In this document: piece after piece, positions 2,577-57,860 of the stretch
Numbering within the stretch: the first letter of the stretch is position 1
How the letters are laid out: each line of letters begins with the position of its first letter
Assembly (NCBI RefSeq): GCF_022045235.1
Contig: NW_027266297.1
Coordinates: 1,798,001-1,862,000, forward strand
DNA: 64,000 nucleotides
Reading direction: 5' to 3'
Source: Haliotis cracherodii
Taxonomy: Eukaryota
Position numbers and translations under genes: made by a program
The notes under the pieces: generated by a model
What the model was told of the DNA's origin: nothing
Databases searched by the model: none
The model's input: only the letters and a program-made list of their open reading frames with translations

Positions 2577-5500
2577 GTGCAACATTTTTGTGATGTTCAT
2601 AGGTGTATTGGCCAGAGGACACAGATATTGTGTTCGCTTGTTACTGAGATTCATGAATGTCTTCTGCAAAAGTCACCGTTGATAATGTAGATAAACTTTT
2701 TAATGATTTTTTTTGTAAGAGTTTGGTTGCATTTTATATATACATGTCCAGTTATTATACAACACAAGATGATTTTATCATGTATATAAATTGGCCAAAG
2801 TGAATCAATTAAACAAGAGATGGGAGGAAGACCAGAATGTGTTAACGATATCCAATTTTGAGCTAACAATTGCCGCACATTAATGTAACGATATAATATT
2901 GATGCAATTCCCATTGTAGGAACTGGAAAGTTGGACTTCTTTCTGGGATTCTATATTTGAATATCAGTTCTTTGAAGAGCAATGGTATCACATTTTACAA
3001 GTCGTTTTTTTCCTTCGGGGAATCCGAGTAAAATCTGTTATTGGTAAATTGTATCCAAACATATATTTTTGTAAAAATCCAAATCATCAGATCCTGCCAG
3101 ATCAGTGTTACCCTGCAACAATCGGAAAAGATATGCGGTGCCGTTTCTGGTCACAATTGAACAATAGCTGCAAGTATCATTGCTGTTATTCCCTTTTTTA
3201 CAAATCTAGAATTAGTAGGTAAAATGTGATGCAAGATGTTATACTGAAACCATTCCAAAGAAGTATCACGTGAACATCTGAAAGGTACATGGCCGTAGAA
3301 AGGCAAGATTTCGCCAAACATATATTTTTATCCAGGATTGCTTCTAATTTTCTACAATGTTGATTACTCTTTAAGCTTTGCTTTTCGAAATTTATATTCT
3401 GTAGTAATACTGTTTCTTTTTTTGTTTTTAATACATGAGATTTATTTAGGTCAGTGGAGTTCAGAATACAGCTAATTTTGATTTAGCTTACAACTCACCT
3501 GTATTTAACTGATACTTATTAGAAAACTTTGACAGGTCAAAACATGTCCTGAAAAATCTAAAATATTATTTCGGTATCAAATTCCCTCTTCATTCAATCT
3601 TGAGAAGTAGATTGTTGTCATTTCGGATATTTCATTGTACCAAATATTTTCGGGTTTTAAACTAGTGCTGAGAGTTTCCGAAGAGTTTGAACTGGCTTTA
3701 AAGTCCCATCAAGCAGAAAGGATATCACTGTAATAGTTGTCTCGTACTAATTGCACAATAACATTCTTTAGATTTTGACAATTTTATTGAAACATTATTT
3801 CGGAACTAAGGCAGATTCTTAGCAACAAGCTGGTCCCACTTCGCAGACTGTTTAAAGAATCTCCTTATCTTTGTTCATTTTTTAGACTGTATTATTTCTG
3901 TCAGTTTAGGATCATTGAAGTGACTATTGTTTTAAATGCGAAAACTAGCTGTTCTCTCTTCGTCTTGTTTCCTCCCCCATATACATCCAAAACACTTACG
4001 TTGGAAATCTTCAGTAAGTCTTTTCCCTGCGGAGTTGGAAGAGATGAAAACAAGTGACTGAGTTTTGGAATGAAATGCAATGTTAGAAAAGTGTTTCTGT
4101 TAGGATATGATAAGTTATGAGTTAACCAAATTTGATTACAAGTAATTCATATGTGCTCTGATCCAAGTTCTGTTTCCATTAAGAGAATGTCTTTTTTCTG
4201 ACCTGCACATATAATTATTGTTTTATCTATATTTACTGTTATATCGGAGAGTCTAACAAAATAATTAGCACTTTCACAAGTGGTCGCATGTTCTCAATCA
4301 TCTAAAGTATAGGTTGTGTCGCCTGCAAACTGATGTAAGAGATATTCTACGTTACCGATGTTTATTCCTTTTCATAATAGCGGGACAATATACCTTTATG
4401 ATACTCATTTAATCCTATGAGAAATAATAAATGATGAAACTTAGTAAACTGCAGACAGCAATGAGATAGGACGCGTACGCCATCTTCAAAAAAATATTGT
4501 TTCGGTTATTGCCTTTTTGATTAAATTAAACCAATTTTTTTAGTTACAGTTAACTTGCTATCTACATAGGTTTGAATTAAAGAGCGGATTAGAAATGTTC
4601 TTAAGTCATTCCAATAAGAACTTCAGAAACTCGTTAGTAAATCAACCAGTGCCTAGACTTTTCTAATTGTTTAAACACTTCAGACCCCTTACAATTTCTT
4701 CATATGCGTAATCACCTTCAAGTTGTGATGCTTGCTCATCACGTATTTTTTTGAACATCTTAAACTCCATCATCCAATCCTTGGTTGATATGCTAGTAGC
4801 ACACGGACAAAGTAATTGTCTTAAACGACAAACAACAAGAAACCCAGCGCTAGTGCCATATGGGCTGGAAAAGGAAAACAAACGATTCCTCTTGGGGGCA
4901 AAGGTCATTTAATAATGACAAATGTTTAATCGAAACATAAAACCTCCAAACCCCCCAAGAGGAATAACCTGGTGAAAGTTCTGTGGTTTAACTTAGTTCA
5001 CTATCCCTGCACTGAGAGATTGAGCATACACTGTAACATAGCGCTCATATGCATTGGAGCGCCAATCACCACGTAGCTTTATAAGCAAGGGTGGAATGCC
5101 AATGTCAAATGCATAGGAACATCCGCCTCTGCGGAAAGAGTGACCGCTGTATGCACCAGAATCATAACCACATTTGTCCAGATAATATTTCAATGTTTTA
5201 ACAAAACTTCTGTAAGTTAAACTCTTGAGGACTCCACTTCTGTCCACATATGAAAACAAAGGTGCATTTGAATGTTGAAGTTCTTCACTATATTGTGAAA
5301 GCAAATGTTCAAGTGCTTTAACAGGACAAAGCACAGAGTCGGGTTCCCTAGCCAGCGGTAACTTTAACACTCGCTGACCAAACTGTATAGTTTTTGTGTG
5401 TCTGACAGTAATCATGGCACTATCTTTGTCAGGGGAAATCTTGGCATCGTGCAGACTCAAGTAGGTCTGCTTTCTTGAACCACTGCCTCTAGTTTCAGGG

Positions 5501-8500
5501 AGCATGGTAGATTTCCTCAAGAAACAGAAAAACGCAATGATGCAGGCTGCCCAAAAAGCTACCAGGAATGGTTCTGACATGTCCATATGACTGTGCATCC
5601 GCCTTAGTATATCTGGTTTTATAGGAAGTTTTTGTTTCGTTGGTGTACCTTTTAGTCTTAAGATACCTTTGTGCAGGGCCTTTTGTTCCCATGTCTCCAA
5701 GGGGTTTGGTAACCCCACCTCAAGATGAAGCAGGCGAATGATATTCATATATCCTGGAATACTAGTTGCTGAAAGGGATCTTGTTAGGAACACTCTGTAA
5801 AGCAGTACTGTCATGCGGTCGGCTGGAACTGGTGTCCTACTAAAGTACAAACAGAATCTCAGATATGCAGTTTTCATTGAGGAATATGTGCGCTTAGTAG
5901 TTTCGGCATATGTTGCCCGTCGAAACTGCTGCATCTCGCTATATAGGTGTCGCCACTGTTGAGCCACTTGCCCTGTAGATAGGACAAAGTTAGTTTGGAT
6001 ACGTGTGAGGATGCTGGCACTAGAATATACTTCCTGTAACAAGTTTCACAACACAACCAATAGAACGGAATAAACTGTATTGATATATAAAGAAATGTAA
6101 CATTGTGCAACCTGCTCAGAGAGTCAGCTGCAAGGTTATCTTTGCCTGGGATATATCTGGCTGAAAATTTAAAGTTATACACAGCAGAAAACCAGAATAT
6201 CTTGCGCAGCCAACGCATGGCTAATCGGTCACGACTAGTACCTTTGTTAAGGGTATGCATAGTATAAGTATTGTCTGTGTAGACAATGATATGTTTGTCT
6301 GTCCAGGTTACACACCAGCGTTTGACTGCTAAATACACAGTGAACAACTCTTTCACATTGATGTGTAAATGTTCAACAAATGGGAAGTCTGTATGCCAAT
6401 TATAATAGACCCAGTCAGGGCCGAAACATGCTGCGCCACCATCACTGCAGGCATCCGTGGAGAACTTTGCTGCGGGCACCGGTTCATTTTCAATAAATTT
6501 CACAGTACCATTAAAACATTCACAAAATTCATGCCACCACTTGATATCAGCCTTTGCGCATACATTCAGCCTGGTATGGTGATTGGGTTTTTTAAGGGTA
6601 TTACATAAGTCAATTAATCTGCGCATAAATGTGCGCCCTCCATGAACTACCTGTGCTGCCCAATTCAATTTACCTACAATTTCCTGAAGTTGACGCTTTG
6701 TTGCTTTCTTTTTCGTCACCCACTTCCCTAATATGTGCTTCAAGTCAAGCAATTTATCCGCAGGTAAGGATAAGGTACAGGTAGTAGAGTCAATCTCTAT
6801 CCCTAGGAAAGTCAGTTTCTGAGTAGGTTCAACCGTTTTGCTTTCATTTATAGCAAAACCTAGATCGGTCAATAATCTTCTCAATGTCCTGAAGGCTTTC
6901 CAACACTCAGAGTTTGTTTTTGCAATGCATAGAAAATCATCAAGGTATACAACTACCACAAAACCTCTGCGCCTTAACATTCTACGAACAGATGACGACA
7001 AACGGCTAAATATCTCAGGGCTCTTGGAAGCTCCAAATGGGAGCTTTGTGTCAATCATGTAGACTGGAAGTCTTGAGTTTTTGAACTGCCACAGCAGGCC
7101 GGTAGCTTCATAGCAGTCAGGATGTAACGGCACCACACGGTAAGCATTTTTCAGATCCAGTTTTGCCATGTATCCACCCCTCGGCAGAAGTTTGATTGCT
7201 TCGTCAATGGTTTGATATTTAAAAGATTGTGTCGTTGCATAATCATTGAGGCTGAGATCACATGGTCTAGAGCAATCATGAATTAAGCGTACCTTCCCAG
7301 TGCCTTTTGGTATTGCTCCCAAGCTACTAACAAGCTTTGGTTTTCTGTCTACAATAACATAATTGCCTCGGCTGATTTCCTCTGAAATTTGGTCTTCAAC
7401 AACTGTTCGTACAGACTCATCTGTGGCAGACTTGTAGTTTTTACAAAGAACATCACTAATTGTTACATTTTTTTCAATAATCCAGAAACCATTTTTGATC
7501 CCATCAATCAAAAACTCACAATCACTGTCCTCTTCTAATTCCCTTTCCCACACGTTAGTACAATTCCCTATTGGGCTGGAGACTTTATTGTTTATAGGTA
7601 CGAAACCGTGGTGGGATATCCTGGTGTTCAAACTGGGGATGCCTTTGCTTGCAGCCTGGTACTATACATGTGTGTGCATACTTGCAGTTTGGGAACTTAC
7701 AACCCGAGGGGTGCTGGTAATTAATGCAAATGGATCTGCCTGACTCATCTGTTGGACGATTGTCACTCTGAGAGCTGGAATGGGCATTCTGAAATGAGTT
7801 TGCTTTTCGGGGTTGGAATGTTCTCTTTTCTAAAAAGTAGAATAGGTCATGGAACGATATTTCACTCCAGCCGCACTGGGTCTGTGCTTGTCTCAATCTG
7901 TGTGCGTTGTCAAGAAGCATAACTGAAGGGATAGTATATGTTTGACAGAGATCCCCAATTTGAGCTGAGTATTCCAGATAGTCCTTAATTTCATCAATAC
8001 CTGCTTTCCTGTGGTCGATCAATTTTGACAAAATACGGACATTGGCTGAAACCCACTGTGATAATGGCACATGTTCTGGAAGGGGTTTCCCCCTCGACGA
8101 CCTTAGATACAGCTGTGCTGACCCATCACCTACTATAGGCGTCTCTTCGCTGGTCATTGATGACCTGGGCTTAGATACAAAGTCAGGAATTAGAAGTGGT
8201 TTCTCACCTCGTCCCTGTAGTGAAGCATTTCCGGGTTGTCCCATGTCTAACGATGTGGTGTGGTCTAGGAAGTCTTTGAGGTGTACATCCGACAAGCTGT
8301 TTACAAGGTCACTCAACTGTTTGTCACCCGCAAGTGTTTTTGTTGTGACAGGCGACGGCAGCGACTGTACTGGTTGCGGCGATTTCAATTGTTTTATTGC
8401 TTGAATTAGGATGTTCCACTGACCTACGGACAATCTTAGTTCAGTAATGTCATCTAGTGACATCAAGCACAACGCATCTGGACTATCAATGTCTTCGTCA

Positions 8501-11500
8501 TTCAAAATTTGTGCGGTCTTACTGTTCAGATGGCTGTCACTGCACCATTGTCGAAAGTCGAACTGACTTGGCTGTTCGTTTCCTTCGCCTTTATTATTCA
8601 CAGACATTCTTCTTTGAGTGAATTTAAACAAACAGACTGAGAAAAATCACCTGCACAACGTGTAGTTTGCAAGTTACGTTTGGCGCCTGTGACGTGTCCC
8701 TTGCAACAATAAAAAACAAATACCGCTTACAGCATAATCAGCCACTGACAGTCTGGATTGTCTCCCCTTGACTGTTAAATAAATGGACAGTAAATCAGAT
8801 GCCATGGCATTGCCGTTTAAATTAAAATAAACTAAGGTTTATTTCTCACATAACATTGTAATAGTGACTCAATGTCAACATCATAAATGGCTTGTTTACC
8901 CTACAGACTGAGAAGGAAAGAGCGGCCATTTTCACCGGTTTATCAAGTTAATCTCCATGTGATGCTTCGATACGAGTAAAGGATTTATTAAGGACATTTC
9001 TAGATTCGAGTCCCCAAAACAGCAAATTCTGCTTTTCACCTTTTTCAATCAATCTGATATGAAGAAATGCGGCCTGTCGTGCTCGAGTCATCGGCGGTGG
9101 GATGGCTCTGCTTTTCAGCCTGGTCAGACACTCTGACATGCACCTCGTCAGAGGCGCCAAAGTTTGTTGAATATTGATATTTTACGAATTACGTAGTATG
9201 TTGAAGGTTCCTTGTAGTAATTTGCTGAGTGGATATTGGCATGGTAAATATGTTGAAATGTCGGCAGTGTACATATTTTGCGATCTGGGCATTGCATATT
9301 TTGATATGTGCAGTGATGAAGGCGGTGTACATTGGTTGTGCTATGGACAGCGAACGGTACTTAAGAGAACCTCATTTCAGCTATAAGTATTGGCTAACTA
9401 TGAACGTTCCATCACGTTTTGCCAGTACCTGCAAATCTGAACAACGTTAAATCCTGAAAGTATTGTATTTTTAATTCCACTTCAAATACCTTCTATGAAT
9501 ATATAGAAAGTCATTCATTGATTGCATTAAGAATTAGGGTTACTGGACAATTTATGGAGGTTTTGAATCCAGTAAAATAAATGAGGAATGAACATGTCTT
9601 AAGATTTTAGAGTCAAGTAAAAAGTTAATTGTTCTGTTGAGTTGAAGATCTGGGAAGAGAATAGCTCTTCAGCAACCAATGCTTGCCGTAAGAGTCGACT
9701 ATGCTTGACGGGAACGGGTGGTCAGGTTCACTAACCTTGTTGATGCATGTCATTGTATCCCAAATGAGTGATCGATGCTAATTATGTCAGTCACTGGATG
9801 GTCTGGTCCAAATCGATTATTTACAGACCACCGTCATATACCTGGGATATTGCTGGGTGCGGCGTTAAACAATAAAAAAAAACAAATAAACAAATTGATG
9901 AGTGGTTTTGGCAGATTTCTTTCTCAGTTAGCACCTACATTATATGTGACATTCTTTGATAAAACAATGAATGTAGTGATGCTTGCTAGGGTGATGCTAT
10001 TTGAGACCTTGTCGGTGAGAACAACAACAACATTTTCTTGTAGGGCTGCTTTACTTTGGATGACAGCTGGCTGGATCAGAATGGTTTATCCAATTCCGTT
10101 TCCTCTTGTTCAGTTTGTACATTCTACCAATGACATCATCACGCACTTAACCTACTCTGAAAGACATTCAACATGTTCCTCTTCTCTTTTTGCACATTTG
10201 TTTTGCATATGCTTCGACAACATCCATAATGAGTTTAATGTTGGTATTAGACTGTTCATAATATTTTGTCCATATTTGAATAATTGACAAAGGTTGTTAT
10301 TGTCTACAGATAAGTGAACTGTGACGTACAGGGTGGTACCAGTATTACAAGAGTTTGCTACTCACGTGGCTATATCCCCCGCCCCTGTTGCAGAATTTAT
10401 GACATAATTAAATCTAAACAAACCCTAACCTTTTTTAACCGAGGCAGAACTTTTCATGGAAATTTTAGAAAAAAGATGAGTTCCACCTTGTATGATAAAA
10501 TTTTTGAACGGTTTATGAGTTATTCTCCGGAAACGAACCCAACCCTCACAGAATCTAAGTCCATCTTGTTGCCATGGAAACGTAAAAAATAAAAATTTCT
10601 AAAATGTCTCAATAGCAAAAGGTTCCAATTCAGCATGTACCTGACAGACCTGCAAAGTTTGATGAAAAAATATTGAACGGTTTATGAGTTATGCTCCGGA
10701 AACGAACCCTACCCTCACAGAACCTAAGTCCACCTTGTTGCCATGGAAACGTAATACATGAAAATTTCTAAAATTTCTCAATAGCAAAAGGCACCAGTTC
10801 AGCATGTACCTGACAGACCTGCAAAGTTTGATGAAAAGTATACAGTTTATGAGTTATGCTCCGGAAAACGAAACATGGCGGACAGACGGAAGGACGGACG
10901 GACGGAGCCCGTTTCTACATCCCCCGCCATCTTCTTTGGGCGGGGGATAATAAGTCTTTGCAGCCACAACTAGTGGAATTTACATCATGGGCTTCCAAGT
11001 CCATGTTCTGCAACACGTAACTGAATAAAATGGATGAAATGGTGTTCGTACAGGAAAATGATTGCACATGGTTAAATGGAATACGAAATATCGTGCGACA
11101 TTTTTGGAAACTGATTTCTGAGAATACTTCGTAGATTTAAGGCAATGTCTAGAACTATACTTTCTCGTCAATACCGTAGGCTCTTACTATGTGTACACCC
11201 ATTCATCAGCACAAGTTGTTGGAGTTATCAATATCTTTCTTTGACAAAGAGGATAGTTCTATTCTATTCTTAACCAATGGTTCCTGAAAGAGTGACAACA
11301 AATCTTCAAAGTGAATATTATCATTTGTCCTTAGTCCGTTGTAACCATGTCTGCCTTCAACGTCCTTGGGATGCTGGAAACAGACACAACATATGACAAC
11401 ATGACTCATATGCGTTTTTACAAAGTATCAGGAGAGGCTCATAACGTCAACAAATAGATTTAGGCCTTTATTAACTTCTATAGGTGCCAGGGAGAATGTC

Positions 11501-14500
11501 GCCCTGAACAAACCAGCATGGATGAGTACAACACGCCGATCTTCACAGCCTGCCAGTAAAGCTGTAGATGGAGTGATTTCTGCAACAGAGGAGAAGTACT
11601 CAGCCCACACCAAGGAGCATGAACCTAAGGCCTGGTGGAAGGTAGACTTACAGATAGATGTGCAGTCAGCACTGATTAAAATCTACTTCAGAAGAGATTG
11701 TAAGTATGACAAGTCTTTGTCATAAATACTTATTAATTGAAAGACATGTCATTACTTCGTTCATTTGTTTAAAATTTAAAATACGTGACATGTATAATTT
11801 GCAATATTAACATCGCTTTTTTTTCAAAAACACCGTATAACATGCATGTATTAATCCCTGTCTCTGGATAATTTAATGATTGTTTGAACAATATTTTCAT
11901 CTTAATTCCTTTGCATACAATTGTAATGTCTTTTTCACATAATGGTCACCTTAATTAATACAGTAATCTCAATGTACCAACGATACACTTTTTAAATGAA
12001 CAACATTTTATACGACTCCGATTTTCAATTTCTCAATTTCTTAATTATAACCACATTTAAACACCTGAAGTACCTTCTGTACAATATTTTCCTGCATAAC
12101 ATAATTGTTGGAAGAGTTATTTCTTTGTTGGATATTTAACTTCACTCACAGCAATATTCCAACTATATGAGGATGACCTGTAAATAATTAATCAGGACTG
12201 GTATTATGGGTTGCATACCATTCATCAGTATCCAATTGCTCACAATCAACAAATTAACATGATTCATTAGGTCCCTGTTTACGTTCAGGTTGCTTGGGAA
12301 CTATTCAGCCTGAAACCAGTACGAGGTTATTTTACCGGACGATCATAAACACGACCGTTAAGTTTGATATGAAGACTAAATATAAATATTTGACACAGGA
12401 ATATGCACATATTTTAAAAACATTTTTAGAAATTCTGAGTAGGAATTTAATTTGGTATACAATTAACATGGCATAAATGTTAAGATTATGACAATTCAAG
12501 ACTTTATAGTTAAGAACACAATGGGAAGTCAGAGTGGAAAGCTTTTCTTGGTTAACAATTAACAAGATGACAAAACAGTTAACATTGTGACAATGTCAGA
12601 CTTTATTGTTAACAACGCATTTATTTCAGTTACCGCTCGACGGAACGGACTTCAACTCTACACCTCGGAAATGAATTCATCTGATCCAAAAGGGGGAGAG
12701 CTTTGCCACTCAGTTACTGCACCTTGTGACTGCACAGGCATCCCTCATGTCCTTAATGTGACCTGTCGTGGAACCTGGCGTTTCCTGACTGTCTACACCG
12801 AGACGAGTTATGCTGGACAAGGTGCTGTGTTAGACTTTGTTGAAGTACAGGTGTTGAGTAAGTATTGTTCTGACACAATCATTGCAGATAGAAGTAAACG
12901 GTACGATTTGTTCAATTTCTTTAATATTTCTGAAACAGTTTGTACAAATCACTGTTAACAATATCTGTGTCGTCCTTTTATCAATCGAAATTGATCGAAA
13001 TATGAACTATATCGTTCAGAGGCGATTTTAACAGAAGACCATTTTATTGCAAAACTGACCTATTCAAATAGTACAATTGTAATTACATTCAAGTATCAAT
13101 AGTGTATTCGAGCAACACGTTACAATGTCATTCTTTATTGATCATGCAGCCTTTAATTGTGTTATGTTATTTTATAATGCGAATTGATGTAGAAACTGAA
13201 ACAGAATATAACCTACAACTAGTTAAAGAAGGAGTGGATGAAATAAGACTGGAAACGAGAATATTCCATTTAGGAATATAGAAAATTACTAAATACATTG
13301 AAATCTACAATGTCACTAAAACCCTCATTCCTGCGCATGTTTCTGTGATTTGTTCTTTTCCTGTTTCTGTTTGTATTCATTTGTAGACATTTGTATTTGT
13401 CTCAATCCCACAGCATGTCCCACTGGTGATTATGGCCCCGACTGTATCAGGAACTGCAGCTCCCGACATTGCAAGACGCCATCCCCTACATGCGGCTCAA
13501 TCAGTGGAGACTGTCCAGCTGATGGCTGTCAGGATGGATGGACGGGGACGGACTGCACTACCGGTAACAACTTTAGTCCAATTGTTTTGAATTTGCCAAT
13601 CCGAGCAGAAATTCCTACTCATTTGCAGAAAGAAACGGACAGGCAAGAAGGGGGAAAACAATATGTTGCCATCTGCTTCTCACGTAATAATTGACCCTTT
13701 ACACATTTTTCACCGAAAATAAATCTCAATGCAAAATTCGACTTTCCGTCTCGAGGTGTACATTCAAGTCGTAAAATCCCGTCCACCTCGCTTGTGAGTG
13801 AGTTTATTTAGTCACATCGTCAGTATCTCAGCCATATCGTGACTACCTCGCTTGTGACAGATTGAATGAATGAACTCAAATGCGGTTTTAATAATGAAAA
13901 GAACATGCTAATTTACGTCATCCAGCTTTCACTCACTCCTACAGGTGCCAGTGTGAATGTCGCCCTGAATAAACCAGCATGGATGAGTACAACACTCCAA
14001 TCTTCACAGCCTGCCAGTAATGCTGTAGATGGAGTGACTACTGCAACACACTACAAGTACTCAGCCCGTACCAAGTATCATCAACATCACGCTTGGTGGA
14101 AGGTGGACCTACAGACACAAGTACAGTCAGCACTGGTTAAAATCTACTTCAGAATAGATTGTATGTATGACACACCCATGTGATGGGAATAAAACCTATT
14201 AAGTATAAACATGCTCTTGCTCTTTTCAGTTTAAAAGTAAACACATTGTTTAAGAAAAGGCATTTGTTATGTGACAGTGTATTGTTTTTGTTGAGATTGG
14301 GTAGTCGCTCGTTGTGTTGTGTTTGGGCCCATATCAGAAGCTTACCCACTGTCACTGCTGGATGAATATATATAGAATACTAAACGAGCTCCCGTGTAAT
14401 ACCAATTTTATGAAACGATTGAATACTTCTGGTATCTGACGAGCAAAAGCGAGTCAGATACCACAACTATTCACGAGTTTCATAAAATTGGTTTTACACG

Positions 14501-17500: not shown

Positions 17501-20500
17501 GCTGATGTGTGACTATGTTATCAGCTACATACATGTCAATGCCAGAGAAAGATCAGTCTGCATCATCCGACACATTGAAAAGAAAGTTAGTTTCAGGAAA
17601 ACAGATGACATCATAGGTCATTTCTTACAACAATGTCAAGATAGTCACCACCTTATCTATCCACCAATGTTTGAAGTGAAGAACTAGAGTGAGTGAGTGA
17701 GTTGGGTTTAAGGCCGCTTTTAAAAGAATTCAATTTATATCACGGCGTGTCAGCTTAATGCAGGAGGAAAGCCCGAAGTGATGCAGGTTTTAGACGTTAA
17801 CCTGACAACCTAGAAATATAATTGGGGCGAACCGGGATTCGAACCCAAAATCATAGGTATCAGGCGTGCCCAAGGGACACAACTCTGCACAGCGAGTGGC
17901 GGCGGCCTAGACGACTGGGCCAACCGTGCCTCTGAACCAGCCGAGATACTATAATAGGCATCTTGATCAATGCATAGAAATTTAAGCTAGCAACCTCTGT
18001 ATCAAGCCGTATCACAAGAGGGATGATTTCGATTCTCCCAGTTTGTTTACCCTCCGTGCTTGACAACATACTGACCCATACTGTGACGTTCACATGGAGT
18101 TGTCACACCTCCTTACTCATTCATCTTTACTTTAATGGTGACTAGGTTGACAGCATTGCATAGTATCATGGTTCAACGATACTGAACACAGGCTTTTTCT
18201 GGTCCAGACTACATTGTTTACAGGTGGCTGTCGGATGGTATGAATAATGCTGTTTGCGATGGACGAAAAAACCTCCCCCCCAAAAACGCTTACTTTTTTA
18301 ATAAAAATGTGTCGGGGGCTGCCATGAGAGCAGGGCATGCTTACTCTTTTCGCAAACACTCGGAATTAACACCCATTTTCATTGTCCCTTCATATTACTT
18401 TCATCACTATTTTGTCTTTTACACCAAACGGATTCTGTATGGGAAGATAATCGAGACTAATTATTCTCAGGCGTTGACGTTTTGAATTTACCTTTTCAAA
18501 CGATTGTCATTGATGTTTGTGTCAATGTTTCTCATAGTGCACATATTAATCACATACATACAATTCAGTTTGCAGCTCTGAAAAGTATGGTTATAACTGT
18601 GCCAGAAACTACAGCTCCCAGCATTGTAAAAAGTCTTTCCCTACACATGACCGAGTCAGTGGTGAGTGCAGTGATGGTTGTCAGGATGGTTGGATGGGTT
18701 CGGACTGCACTGAAGGTAATTTTACAATCTCAAGTGTATGCCACCTCTGTTTGACAATGATGTTGATGACCATTTTGCATTTCTTTGCTGAAGGAAAGCT
18801 TAGATTTTCATAATAATTATGAAAGCCTTCGTTTTTCTGTATGCATGTTATGTATATTCATCTAAATGATGGCAGCATACATTTAAAGCAATGCCATTAT
18901 TTGATTTCTCAAAATACTTTTTAGCATCATCATTCAGATCCTTCTGATACAAATAGCGATCAAATGAAATAGTAATGTCTCAAATGCTGAGAGAGAAGCG
19001 CCGAGCAGCTCAAAACAGATAGGTTGATTATTTGATAAAAGGCTGGGGCAATAGCTATCGTAAAAATAAACAATCTTAAGTTTGCAGTTGCACAATACAT
19101 ACTCTTGACGTTTTTTTTTATTATTCACCAGAGTCCACAAAGGGAAATACTATAATTTGTCACATTAAAATTTCAGAAAAAAAACAACAATTTCATTTTC
19201 CTATACGAATTCCATTTCATCCAGGTTGTTCAATTATACGAACGTATTGCAAAACGTGGACTCGGCAGCTCATAATGTAAATTCCACTACTTGTGGCTGC
19301 CTACGAATCATCACAATGCTACCAACCAGTAGGTAATATAATCACTGGTGACTTCTCTATTGTTTAAATATGGATCAAAATATCCTGAGTAGCTTAGTAT
19401 ATTGATGTGGGTCACAACTTTAAAATCATTATGGCTGCTGTCGAAACATATGCCAAAAATTGGCCAAAAGAGGTGAAAAATCTGGAATGTCTTTCAAAGT
19501 GGGTTAACTCTGCGCGTAGAATGCACAAACGTGAAATAGAGAAAACAGAATTGGAACAAACCCGCTCTGTTCCTGCCAAAGTCTGGCTGCCCAACATAAA
19601 AACTTTGTAGTTTTCCCACTGCCATGGCCTCAAGTTTAATAATCATATGTTATCATTACTACAATACATATTTGATTAAAGAACTTAAGTGACATCTCAG
19701 ATAATGCTGCATTTAAGGTCAGTTTGTTAACTGCGGAAAAAAGAGACAAAACCATTTCCATATCCAATAGAAATCAGGCATTGTTGAATTACGACTATAC
19801 CATGAACATATGTTTATTAATCACTATCAAATAGTATTGATACCAGGCGATCGCGAAAAGGTGAGCGCATCCTGCCCCACCGGTGGCACCCGTCACAAAC
19901 ACATGCAAACGCAATTCAATTGTTCACCTGAAAAAAAACATGGGAATACAACGTGCAAGTCAAAATAGGGAATTGCATCGGACATCATTTTTGTCACTGA
20001 TGCGTAAAATTTGGAAATGTCCTCCCCATGTCTACCACAAAACTTTACTTTACTGAGGCCTTGAATGTTGTTACATTGATCAAACAACTCCTGAGCAAGA
20101 GTTCTATGACTCTCTTTTGATTCTTGGTGGAATGAGCATGCTAAACCTGCCATAACCATGTATCACTTCTATAACTTGACGCTAAGACCTGAAGACATGT
20201 CCAGCAATATTTTATACTGGCTTCCAAAGCTCAGAAAAAATATGTACAATGAGAGATATATTGCTTGGTCCAGCAAATAAGCTACCTAATTCCTGTTTCA
20301 AAGATTAAACATAATCCTTGATACTGTCAAGGAAGGACTTTCTTTATGTTCGTTGGAAGTATTTGAGACAGGGGGAACTAATTCCATACCATGTGAATTA
20401 TGAAGAACTCAAAGCATTTGTTTACAGTTTTGCAATCACAGAAAGAACTAAGTTCAATGCTCTCAAAATATATGATTTTTAAAACGTTTTAGACCACTAT

Positions 20501-56371: not shown

Positions 56372-56654
56372 GATTTTCTGAAACAAGGTAAGTGACTACA
56401 ATTACAATCTGCTGAAGGTTGTCGATTATTTGAATTCCAATATCTTCGGATTCAGAAGAATGATGTGAGTTTGAACAGTATATATGTAATATCACAGTGC
56501 CTCAACTTAATGTGGGAGAAAAGCCAACATTTTTGCAGGGTGTGTCAGGAACTCGAACCTATGGTCATCGCAGACCACCCGTGCCCACAAATCATGTCGA
56601 CGTCAAATCACATGGTTGTTTGTATGGGAATCGCAACACGAGGAGCATGGACCG

Positions 56655-57860
56655 TAACACACAGGAGGAATGGTCAACACACAGGAGAAATGGTCAACAC
56701 ACAGGAAGAATGGTCAACACACAGGAAGAATGGTCAACACACAGGAGGAATGGTCAACACACAGGAGAAATGGTCAACACACAGGAGGAATGCTCAGCAC
56801 ACGGGGAATGGTCAAATCACAGGAGGAATGGTCAACACACAGGAGAAATGGTCAACACACAGGAGAAATGGTCAACACACAGGAGAAATGGTCAACACAC
56901 AGGAGAAATGGTCAGCACACAGGAGGAATGGTCAACACACAGGAAGAATGGTCAACACACAGGAGAAATGGTCAACACACAGGAGAAATGGTCAACACAT
57001 AGGAAGAATGGTCAACACACAGGAGGAATGGTCAACACACAGGAGAAATGGTCAACACACAGGAGAAATGGTCAACACACAGGAGAAATGGTCAGCACAC
57101 AGGAGAAATGGTCAACACACAGGAAGAATGGTCAACACACAGGAGAAATGGTCAGCACACAGGAGAAATGGTCAACACACAGGAAGAATGGTCAACACAC
57201 AGGAGGAATGATCAACACACAGGAGAAATGGTCAACACACAGGAGAAATGGTCAACACACAGGAGAAATGGTCAGCAGACAGGAGGAATGGTCAACACAC
57301 AGGAGAAATGGTCAACACACAGGAGGAATGCTCAGCACACAGGGGAATGGTCAAATCACAGGAAGAATGCTCAGCACACAGGAAGAATGCTCAGCACACA
57401 GGGGGAATGGTCAAATCACAGGAAGAATGCTCAGCACACAGGGGGAATGCTTAGCACACAGGGGAATGATCAACACACAGGAGAAAGGTCAACACACAGG
57501 GGGAATGGTCAGCACACAGGGGAATGGTCAACACACAGGCGGAATGGTCAACACAAAGGATGAATGCTCAGCACAGGGGGAATGCTCAGCACACAGGGGG
57601 AATGGTCAACACACAGGGGGAATGGTCAACACAAAGGGGAATGATCAACACACAGGCGGAATGGTCAACACACAGGATGAATGCTCAGCACAGGGGGAAT
57701 GCTCAGCACACAAGGGAATAGTCAACACACAGGGGGAATGGTCTACGCACAGGAGGAATGGTCAACAAACAGTAGAATAGTCAACACACAGTAGAATGGT
57801 CAACACTCAAGGGGAATGGTCAACACACAGGAGGAATGGTCAACACACAGGAGGAATAAT
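56655..57860. repeat. 20-bp minisatellite
   Basis: Unit ACACAGGAGAAATGGTCAAC, degenerating toward the 3' end. Confidence 0.97.

Follow-up and report, generated by a model that had tools for sequence, protein, structure and literature searches.

A likely splice joining the front of Gag to the tyrosine recombinase in a Ngaro-like retrotransposon of Haliotis cracherodii

Introduction

Ngaro-like elements, a class of tyrosine recombinase (YR) retrotransposons within the order DIRS, are defined by layout and domain content in passages of PMC8547959, PMC4157794 and PMC9210276. As described there, a methyltransferase is a feature of the DIRS-like and PAT-like classes, and Ngaro-like elements have split direct repeats in the order A1-ORFs-B1-A2-B2, with the internal repeats downstream of YR (PMC8547959, PMC4157794). 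The expression of the third, overlapping ORF of YR retrotransposons, which lacks a start codon, had been an open question. One published mechanism for YR was found, a -1 frameshift from pol (Poulter and Butler 2015, as quoted in a passage of PMC13003380). No report of a Gag-YR splice was found in the literature searched, including the relevant passages of PMC7192593, PMC6681497, PMC9341512, PMC8547959, PMC5890265, PMC3783388, PMC9210276 and PMC4157794; Goodwin and Poulter 2004 and Poulter and Butler 2015 may say more.

The element described here lies in a 64,000-nucleotide stretch of the Haliotis cracherodii genome (the window; contig NW_027266297.1, positions 1,798,001 to 1,862,000). An earlier note, made from the letters of the window, had predicted that a donor inside gag and an acceptor at the start of YR, both in phase 1, bound an intron whose removal fuses the N-terminal part of Gag in frame to the recombinase. 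The follow-up makes it highly probable, taking the explanation as a whole, that the splice is real and that, of the possible forms of the recombinase, the resulting Gag(N)-YR fusion is the likeliest.

Results

The window element spans about 8853-4759 on the minus strand and contains three overlapping frames in the order gag, pol (RT/RNase H) and YR (Table 1). Searches against Pfam identified RVT_1 in the pol frame (E 8.9e-19) and gave weak matches to RNase H models (E 0.007-0.02), and no family scored above the cut-off for the gag-like ORF. No methyltransferase family was detected in the element at E up to 0.1, and pol stops about 75 aa past the RNase H motif. Assignment to the PAT-like or DIRS-like class was rejected, since neither a methyltransferase nor, for DIRS-like, inverted terminal repeats were found. 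By the published definitions of layout and domains, the element is a Ngaro-like retrotransposon. It shares with the Ngaro-like elements described in passages of PMC8547959, PMC9210276, PMC4157794, PMC3783388 and PMC6681497 the overlapping gag, RT/RNase H and YR frames, the missing methyltransferase and, in its sister copies, the split direct repeats. It differs in that those passages describe no YR splice, in the absence of an SGNH ORF from the window element's family, and in the window copy itself, which has A1 and B only, without the A2-B2 block after B. The full A1-ORFs-B1-A2-B2 pattern is present in three copies (L002, L003 and L004) that are 98.8-99% identical to the window copy.

Table 1. 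Features of the window element (window positions)
Feature	Position	Strand	Remarks
A1 terminal repeat	8627..8853	-	about 225 nt; recurs after B1 in copies L002, L003, L004, L006, L012
gag frame	8646-7585	-	ATG 8607
gag-like ORF	7585..8607	-	340 aa from ATG 8607; Cys/His knuckle-like C-terminal region; ends PPRFR-TYKQ
Exon 1, coding part	8208..8607	-	133 codons + 1 nt
Predicted SAM-like five-helix domain	8377..8565	-	residues about 15-77
5' splice site	8202..8210	-	GT 8207-8206, phase 1; top-scoring donor in gag; used in X6, X10
Intron, GT-AG	5973..8207	-	2235 nt; contains gag core and RT/RNase H; joint seen in 2/8 runs
pol frame	5874..7661	-	RT (YLDD), RNase H
Predicted +1 frameshift site, UUU_CGU	7600..7605	-	in gag frame; +1 frame open into pol
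Weak AG, pol acceptor of the earlier note	7568..7569	-	score -0.2 vs mean 4.3 for YR acceptors; unsupported
YR frame	6045-4993	-	overlaps pol over 6045-5874; -1 to pol
Branch-like CTAAC, pyrimidine tract and 3' splice site	5973..5994	-	AG 5974-5973, phase 1; used in X6, X10
Exon 2, coding part (tyrosine recombinase)	4993..5972	-	catalytic residues
Internal ATG of YR frame	5932..5934	-	within first conserved stretch, not conserved; start of P0001
Second GT-AG intron, inside YR	5516..5666	-	151 nt; X10 joint 5514/5666, CT..AC, cut +1; one run
B repeat	4759..4947	-	ATTAAA 4913-4908; poly(A) site at about 4892

Several other features of the copies and their surroundings were recorded. Near the YR C-terminus (5024), the window copy is missing 21 nt compared with its sister copies and the run contigs covering that place, and the pol frame is interrupted in five near-full-length sister copies. 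Copy L002 (G000:C34, about 48.437-48.442 Mb) has an additional upstream A-B block, giving A-B-A-ORFs-B-A-B, and lone A-B pairs are numerous elsewhere in the genome. No relatives of the element were found among viral contigs. On the plus strand of the window, opposite to the element, recurring EGF-like exons of one or more host genes lie at 13452-13570, 18604-18720, 21308, 21937, 48636 and 50863, and an A-rich tandem repeat with long open frames lies at 56396-57777.

Rereading the window sequence confirmed the two sites and the intron between them, which bears the hallmarks of a U2-type intron: GT-AG ends, a pyrimidine tract and a branch-like CTAAC whose branch A, at 5990, is 18 nt from the intron end. 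The donor falls after the first base of the Gly codon in R-G-E of gag, and the acceptor after the first base of the Gly codon in S-T-G of the YR frame. By arithmetic, the 400 and 977 coding nt of the two exons make 459 codons, for a predicted Gag(N)-YR protein of 459 aa. Taken alone, the window donor exceeds chance expectation by a modest margin (p = 0.063, compared with 1000 synonymous shuffles). Among family copies covering the sites, the donor is intact in 10/12 and the AG in 10/11, but site integrity in these copies says little because they are young.

Donors were also compared across families, by scoring 27 gag ORFs with a metazoan donor table; the ORFs were chosen by hand and include partial ones and close relatives. 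All 27 have their best donor in phase 1, a phase that synonymous shuffles favor too (mean 19.1, max 26). Position is the sharper test: in 24 of the ORFs the best donor is no more than 40 codons ahead of the conserved gag core (1000 shuffles: mean 5.7, max 13). L110 retains its donor on a Ser codon and L107 and L132 retain theirs 3-6 codons further upstream; in L105, L120 and L128 the usual position holds no good donor. Acceptors, scored with our own pyrimidine-tract heuristic, were examined in 93 loci: the window, 13 relatives from the same genome and 79 loci from a metagenome scan (from the best 80 of 404). The best-scoring AG within 150 nt upstream of YR was in phase 1 in 73 of the 87 loci that could be anchored. 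From the window and the metagenome loci, the 75/80 with enough upstream DNA were clustered at 70% YR identity into 59 families. Here the best AG was in phase 1 in 53 families, and both in phase 1 and 40-95 nt upstream in 51 (65 nt in the window). In control windows, phase 1 was found in 9/42 and 29/59 cases, with mean scores of 1.0 and 1.5 versus 4.3 for the YR acceptors. Conservation of donor and acceptor in related elements had been named in the earlier note as a check on its prediction, and both were found; judged from these sequences, the signal across families is far above chance.

The acceptor lies where pol and YR can overlap, and its retention was compared with the course of pol in the 49/59 families whose RNase H end was placed. 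It was kept in 22/23 families where pol reads CAG as Gln, in 9/9 where pol crosses the AG in another frame, in 12/14 where pol stops at least 15 nt before the AG, and in 2/3 others. Retention where pol ends earlier or crosses in another frame argues that the signal is conserved, not the peptide. By eye, the N-termini of many of 120 YR relatives read through a hydrophobic-[TAPS]-[GEDA] signature a few residues ahead of the first conserved stretch, the form that a phase-1 acceptor would take in protein. In distant families of the same genome, CAG is present at the Gln of LSRxQ in all 19 loci with the motif (40 examined), and the YR frame begins there, in phase 1; pol coding could contribute to the CAG in these cases. 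As a separate observation, L151 and L100 have pol and YR in one open frame and may be mutated copies; L151 still has a strong phase-1 acceptor.

The same comparison bears on the published proposal that a -1 ribosomal shift at the pol end carries translation on into YR, as a Gag-Pol-YR protein (Poulter and Butler 2015, as cited in a passage of PMC13003380). The frame relationship in the window is the right one, and a compatible overlap occurs in 24 of the 49 families with a located RNase H end. However, the window overlap contains no X XXY YYZ heptamer, only one of the 24 compatible families has such a heptamer, and a weak one, the other 25 families lack a -1-compatible overlap, and the splice join itself is seen in sequence data (below). 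Frameshifting is therefore an extremely improbable source of the window recombinase, and is largely refuted as a general mechanism for YR.

The earlier note had also proposed a search for reads across the predicted junction. Public sequence sets were used: 24 runs were listed, none recorded as RNA, and eight (X1, X2, X5, X6, X7, X10, X13 and X14) were compared, all as assembled contigs whose RNA status was guessed. Two of the eight contig sets, X6 and X10, contain an exact joint at 5971/8207 that skips 2235 nt, with CT..AC at the cut, which shifted by +1 equals the predicted 5972/8208. The contigs represent related copies with several percent other letters, not the window copy itself; the shorter sides of the joined contigs are 30 and 27 nt, and the stretch between is marked 'not known'. 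X6 and X10 come from two studies with two organism labels, and their joined contigs have depths of 9.0 and 10.5, respectively. Both sets also carry unspliced contigs that meet the joined ones by overlaps of about 30 nt, in the manner of a branch in an assembly graph. Although contig depth is a poor measure, the joined (10.5) and unspliced (3.65) depths in X10 add up to approximately that of the exon-2 contig (13.6). X10 also contains a loose end of 24 T at 4892, 16 nt beyond ATTAAA, consistent with polyadenylated RNA from the minus strand. RNA splicing is the likely cause of so precise a removal of 2235 nt. The predicted junction was thus recovered to the base, and, together with the conservation of the sites, this backs the in-frame join of the earlier note, the fusion protein itself being predicted. 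We regard the splice as almost certainly real in the window element's family.

The join was not seen in the other six runs (X1, X2, X5, X7, X13 and X14). Contigs in X1, X2, X5 and X13 cross one or both of the sites in unspliced form. In X14, a foreign end of 27 nt has been joined to the acceptor at 5974 and may be a host exon that an element copy within an intron has captured; a search by short motif did not find the source of this end in the window or the loci. X10 shows a second splice, of 151 nt inside YR, removed at depth 10.4 with an unspliced contig alongside. This intron breaks the frame, so some spliced RNA gives no enzyme; noise and a brake on recombinase output are suggested as alternative explanations.

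Genomic copies were searched for traces of spliced RNA copied back into DNA. No intron-less copy of the window family was found in the genome, with 23/23 exon 1 candidates and 18/18 acceptor-region candidates scored and none joined, and deletions in same-family copies had no GT-AG ends at the predicted splice sites. Nor was a gag-to-YR intron-less copy found in the sister families L099 and L080, among the 35 of 392 and 40 of 94 candidates scored. In L099, two genomic copies, L180 and L181, lack GT-AG segments of 821 and 845 nt. These segments begin at different donors within YR and share a single acceptor, which precedes an SGNH-like ORF, indicating that RNA of such elements is spliced and then copied back. 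Other deletions (L182-L184) were rejected as lost introns on account of ends that are not GT-AG. The L099 family is young and of high copy number, the 35 scored of its 392 candidates being 96-100% identical.

The recombinase was characterized with regard to its catalytic residues and possible starts. In the 350-aa frame the catalytic set comprises R177, K218, H302, R305, W328 and Y336, of which K218, H302, R305 and Y336 are invariant in 70 YR sequences. For this frame, 614 relatives were found (E up to 1e-20); Pfam gave no YR family. Among the best 120 of these 614 protein matches, lengths are 248-364 aa, which is too short for the fusion and therefore ranks as counter-evidence, and a YR is absent from all of the 150 top-ranking proteins that carry the exon-1 domain. 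The closest database protein, P0001 (source label Haliotis cracherodii), begins at the internal ATG 5934. This ATG, kept in 9/10 other copies covering it, and the six runs without the join would be accounted for if YR were translated alone, either on a short RNA or by ribosomes that reinitiate after pol, with the splice as a side product or a throttle on pol. Against this, the Met lies inside a conserved stretch that begins upstream of it and is not itself conserved: no conserved Met was found in the N-termini of the 120 YR relatives, and in the open YR frame ahead of the anchor, a Met occurs in only 20/59 families. Moreover, donor and acceptor stay in phase 1 together across families; a throttle would work without this match. 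Translation of YR alone is accordingly considered quite unlikely, and the Gag(N)-YR fusion is very probably the main form of the recombinase.

For pol, a different route is indicated. The earlier note had stated that pol has no AUG before the RT core, and indeed the pol frame contains no Met before residue 165. It offered two ways around this, a weaker acceptor near 7570 or a +1 shift from gag. The former would extend to pol a scheme in which one leader exon, spliced to alternative acceptors, makes all three proteins; the AG in question is in phase 1 with an open frame, and splicing could absorb the variation in gag-pol frame offset, which is +1, -1 or 0 in different families. However, this AG scores far below the YR acceptors (Table 1), and a search for pol acceptors, with 18/21 loci anchored, returned best AGs in phases 1, 2 and 0 in 9, 5 and 4 loci with scores mostly under 2, so that no strong or conserved counterpart emerged. 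No joint to 7569-7568 was present in the eight runs, and each offset class has, by eye, a matching recoding signal at the end of gag. Use of this AG as a pol acceptor was therefore rejected, and production of all three proteins by splicing is very unlikely. The earlier note's view of alternative splicing as the expression strategy of the element thus holds for YR alone, through the join and the conservation of its sites.

The second option was borne out by a UUU_CGU site near the end of gag, from which the +1 frame is open into pol. TTT CGT is present at the gag end in 6/7 elements with a +1 pol offset (the window, L103, L105, L106, L107 and L132, from five clusters), all six with the +1 frame open into pol; L142 has the +1 offset without UUU_CGU. 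In the gags examined, TTT accounts for 64% of Phe codons and CGT for 16% of Arg codons. Pol is probably reached by a +1 shift at this site, giving a predicted Gag-Pol of about 910 aa. Elsewhere, inspection by eye identified slippery-type heptamers, A AAA AAC or G GGA AAM, immediately upstream of the gag stop codon in L109, L124, L125, L144, L148, L155, L156 and L177, where pol is in the -1 frame, and in-frame stops at the gag end in L110, L120, L128, L145, L157, L159 and L164. Each offset class has a matching signal, and within one clade +1, -1 and readthrough signals seem to replace one another at the gag-pol junction. In a further set of distant Ngaro-like families of the same genome (L078, L080, L082, L084-L088, L092, L093, L095, L096 and L098), TGA followed by CTN or CCN stands directly before the pol frame, and in most of them gag is in the same frame as pol. 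TGA followed by CTN or CCN is a leaky-stop context, which suggests that Gag-Pol may be made by UGA readthrough in those families.

Exon 1, predicted to be common to Gag, Gag-Pol and Gag(N)-YR, was modeled with AlphaFold2 from eight sequences (pLDDT 87-90 over residues 21-70). The top VIA-align matches were all SAM domains, the best with Z 8.8 and rmsd 1.7 over 62 aligned residues, although Z is near the level of common helical arrangements; the best Foldseek match was not significant (E 0.047). The predicted fold overlays the SAM domains of Eph, SAMD5, Sans, BICC1 and tankyrase (Z 7.5-8.8), but exon 1 has no Pfam match and 10-25% identity to them, and helix-hairpin-helix domains score little lower (Z about 6.5). 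Exon 1 is thus predicted to fold as a SAM-like domain. No report of a SAM domain in Ngaro gag was found in the portions of the literature consulted. SAM domains often self-associate, and SAM-mediated recruitment of YR into Gag assemblies is conceivable, though we advance it tentatively. Gag front ends differ in other subfamilies, so a SAM domain is not the general reason for the splice.

Discussion

The splice join was found exact to the base in public sequence data, probably RNA, from related animals, and the likely product is therefore a hybrid in which the front of Gag precedes the recombinase. In the proposed model, unspliced RNA would yield Gag and, via the +1 shift at UUU_CGU, Gag-Pol, and spliced RNA, polyadenylated in repeat B, would be translated into Gag(N)-YR, the principal form of the recombinase. 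Through the SAM-like front end common to both, the recombinase could co-assemble with Gag and so travel with the cDNA. A more general version, speculative and somewhat less likely than not, is that Ngaro retrotransposons run a three-way program from one RNA, undescribed so far: Gag from the unspliced form, Gag-Pol by interchangeable recoding (+1, -1 or readthrough according to subfamily), and YR spliced onto a SAM-like front that docks into the Gag particle, with the splice setting the amount of integrating enzyme.

The model would replace the guess of a -1 frameshift with a testable gene structure for the start-less third ORF. It implies that the actual recombinase is a Gag fusion instead of the ORF annotated on its own, with consequences for annotation and for the biochemistry of such enzymes. 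The findings further hint at a +1 shift at UUU_CGU beyond RNA viruses, and at a way in which the enzyme could enter particles.

A +1 shift of the UUU_CGN type is known from influenza PA-X. UUU_CGN is likewise the +1 frameshift motif of amalgaviruses, according to a passage of PMC5052127, and the candidate site in the window element resembles the amalgavirus one in its hexamer, its place at the end of the first ORF and the +1 frame open into the polymerase. The site described here differs in lying at a retrotransposon gag-pol junction, in one subfamily, and in being predicted from sequence.

Spliced subgenomic RNA is the source of the Env proteins of gypsy and retroviruses. In Arabidopsis, the Ty1/Copia element EVD produces a spliced short GAG subgenomic RNA, as reported in a passage of PMC5580714. 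These LTR systems and the window element would have in common one promoter, an intron retained on the genomic RNA, and a spliced RNA dedicated to one product. In the LTR elements, the spliced RNA yields Gag alone or Env, whereas the splice in the window element would drop the gag core together with pol and place the front of gag on the integrating enzyme.
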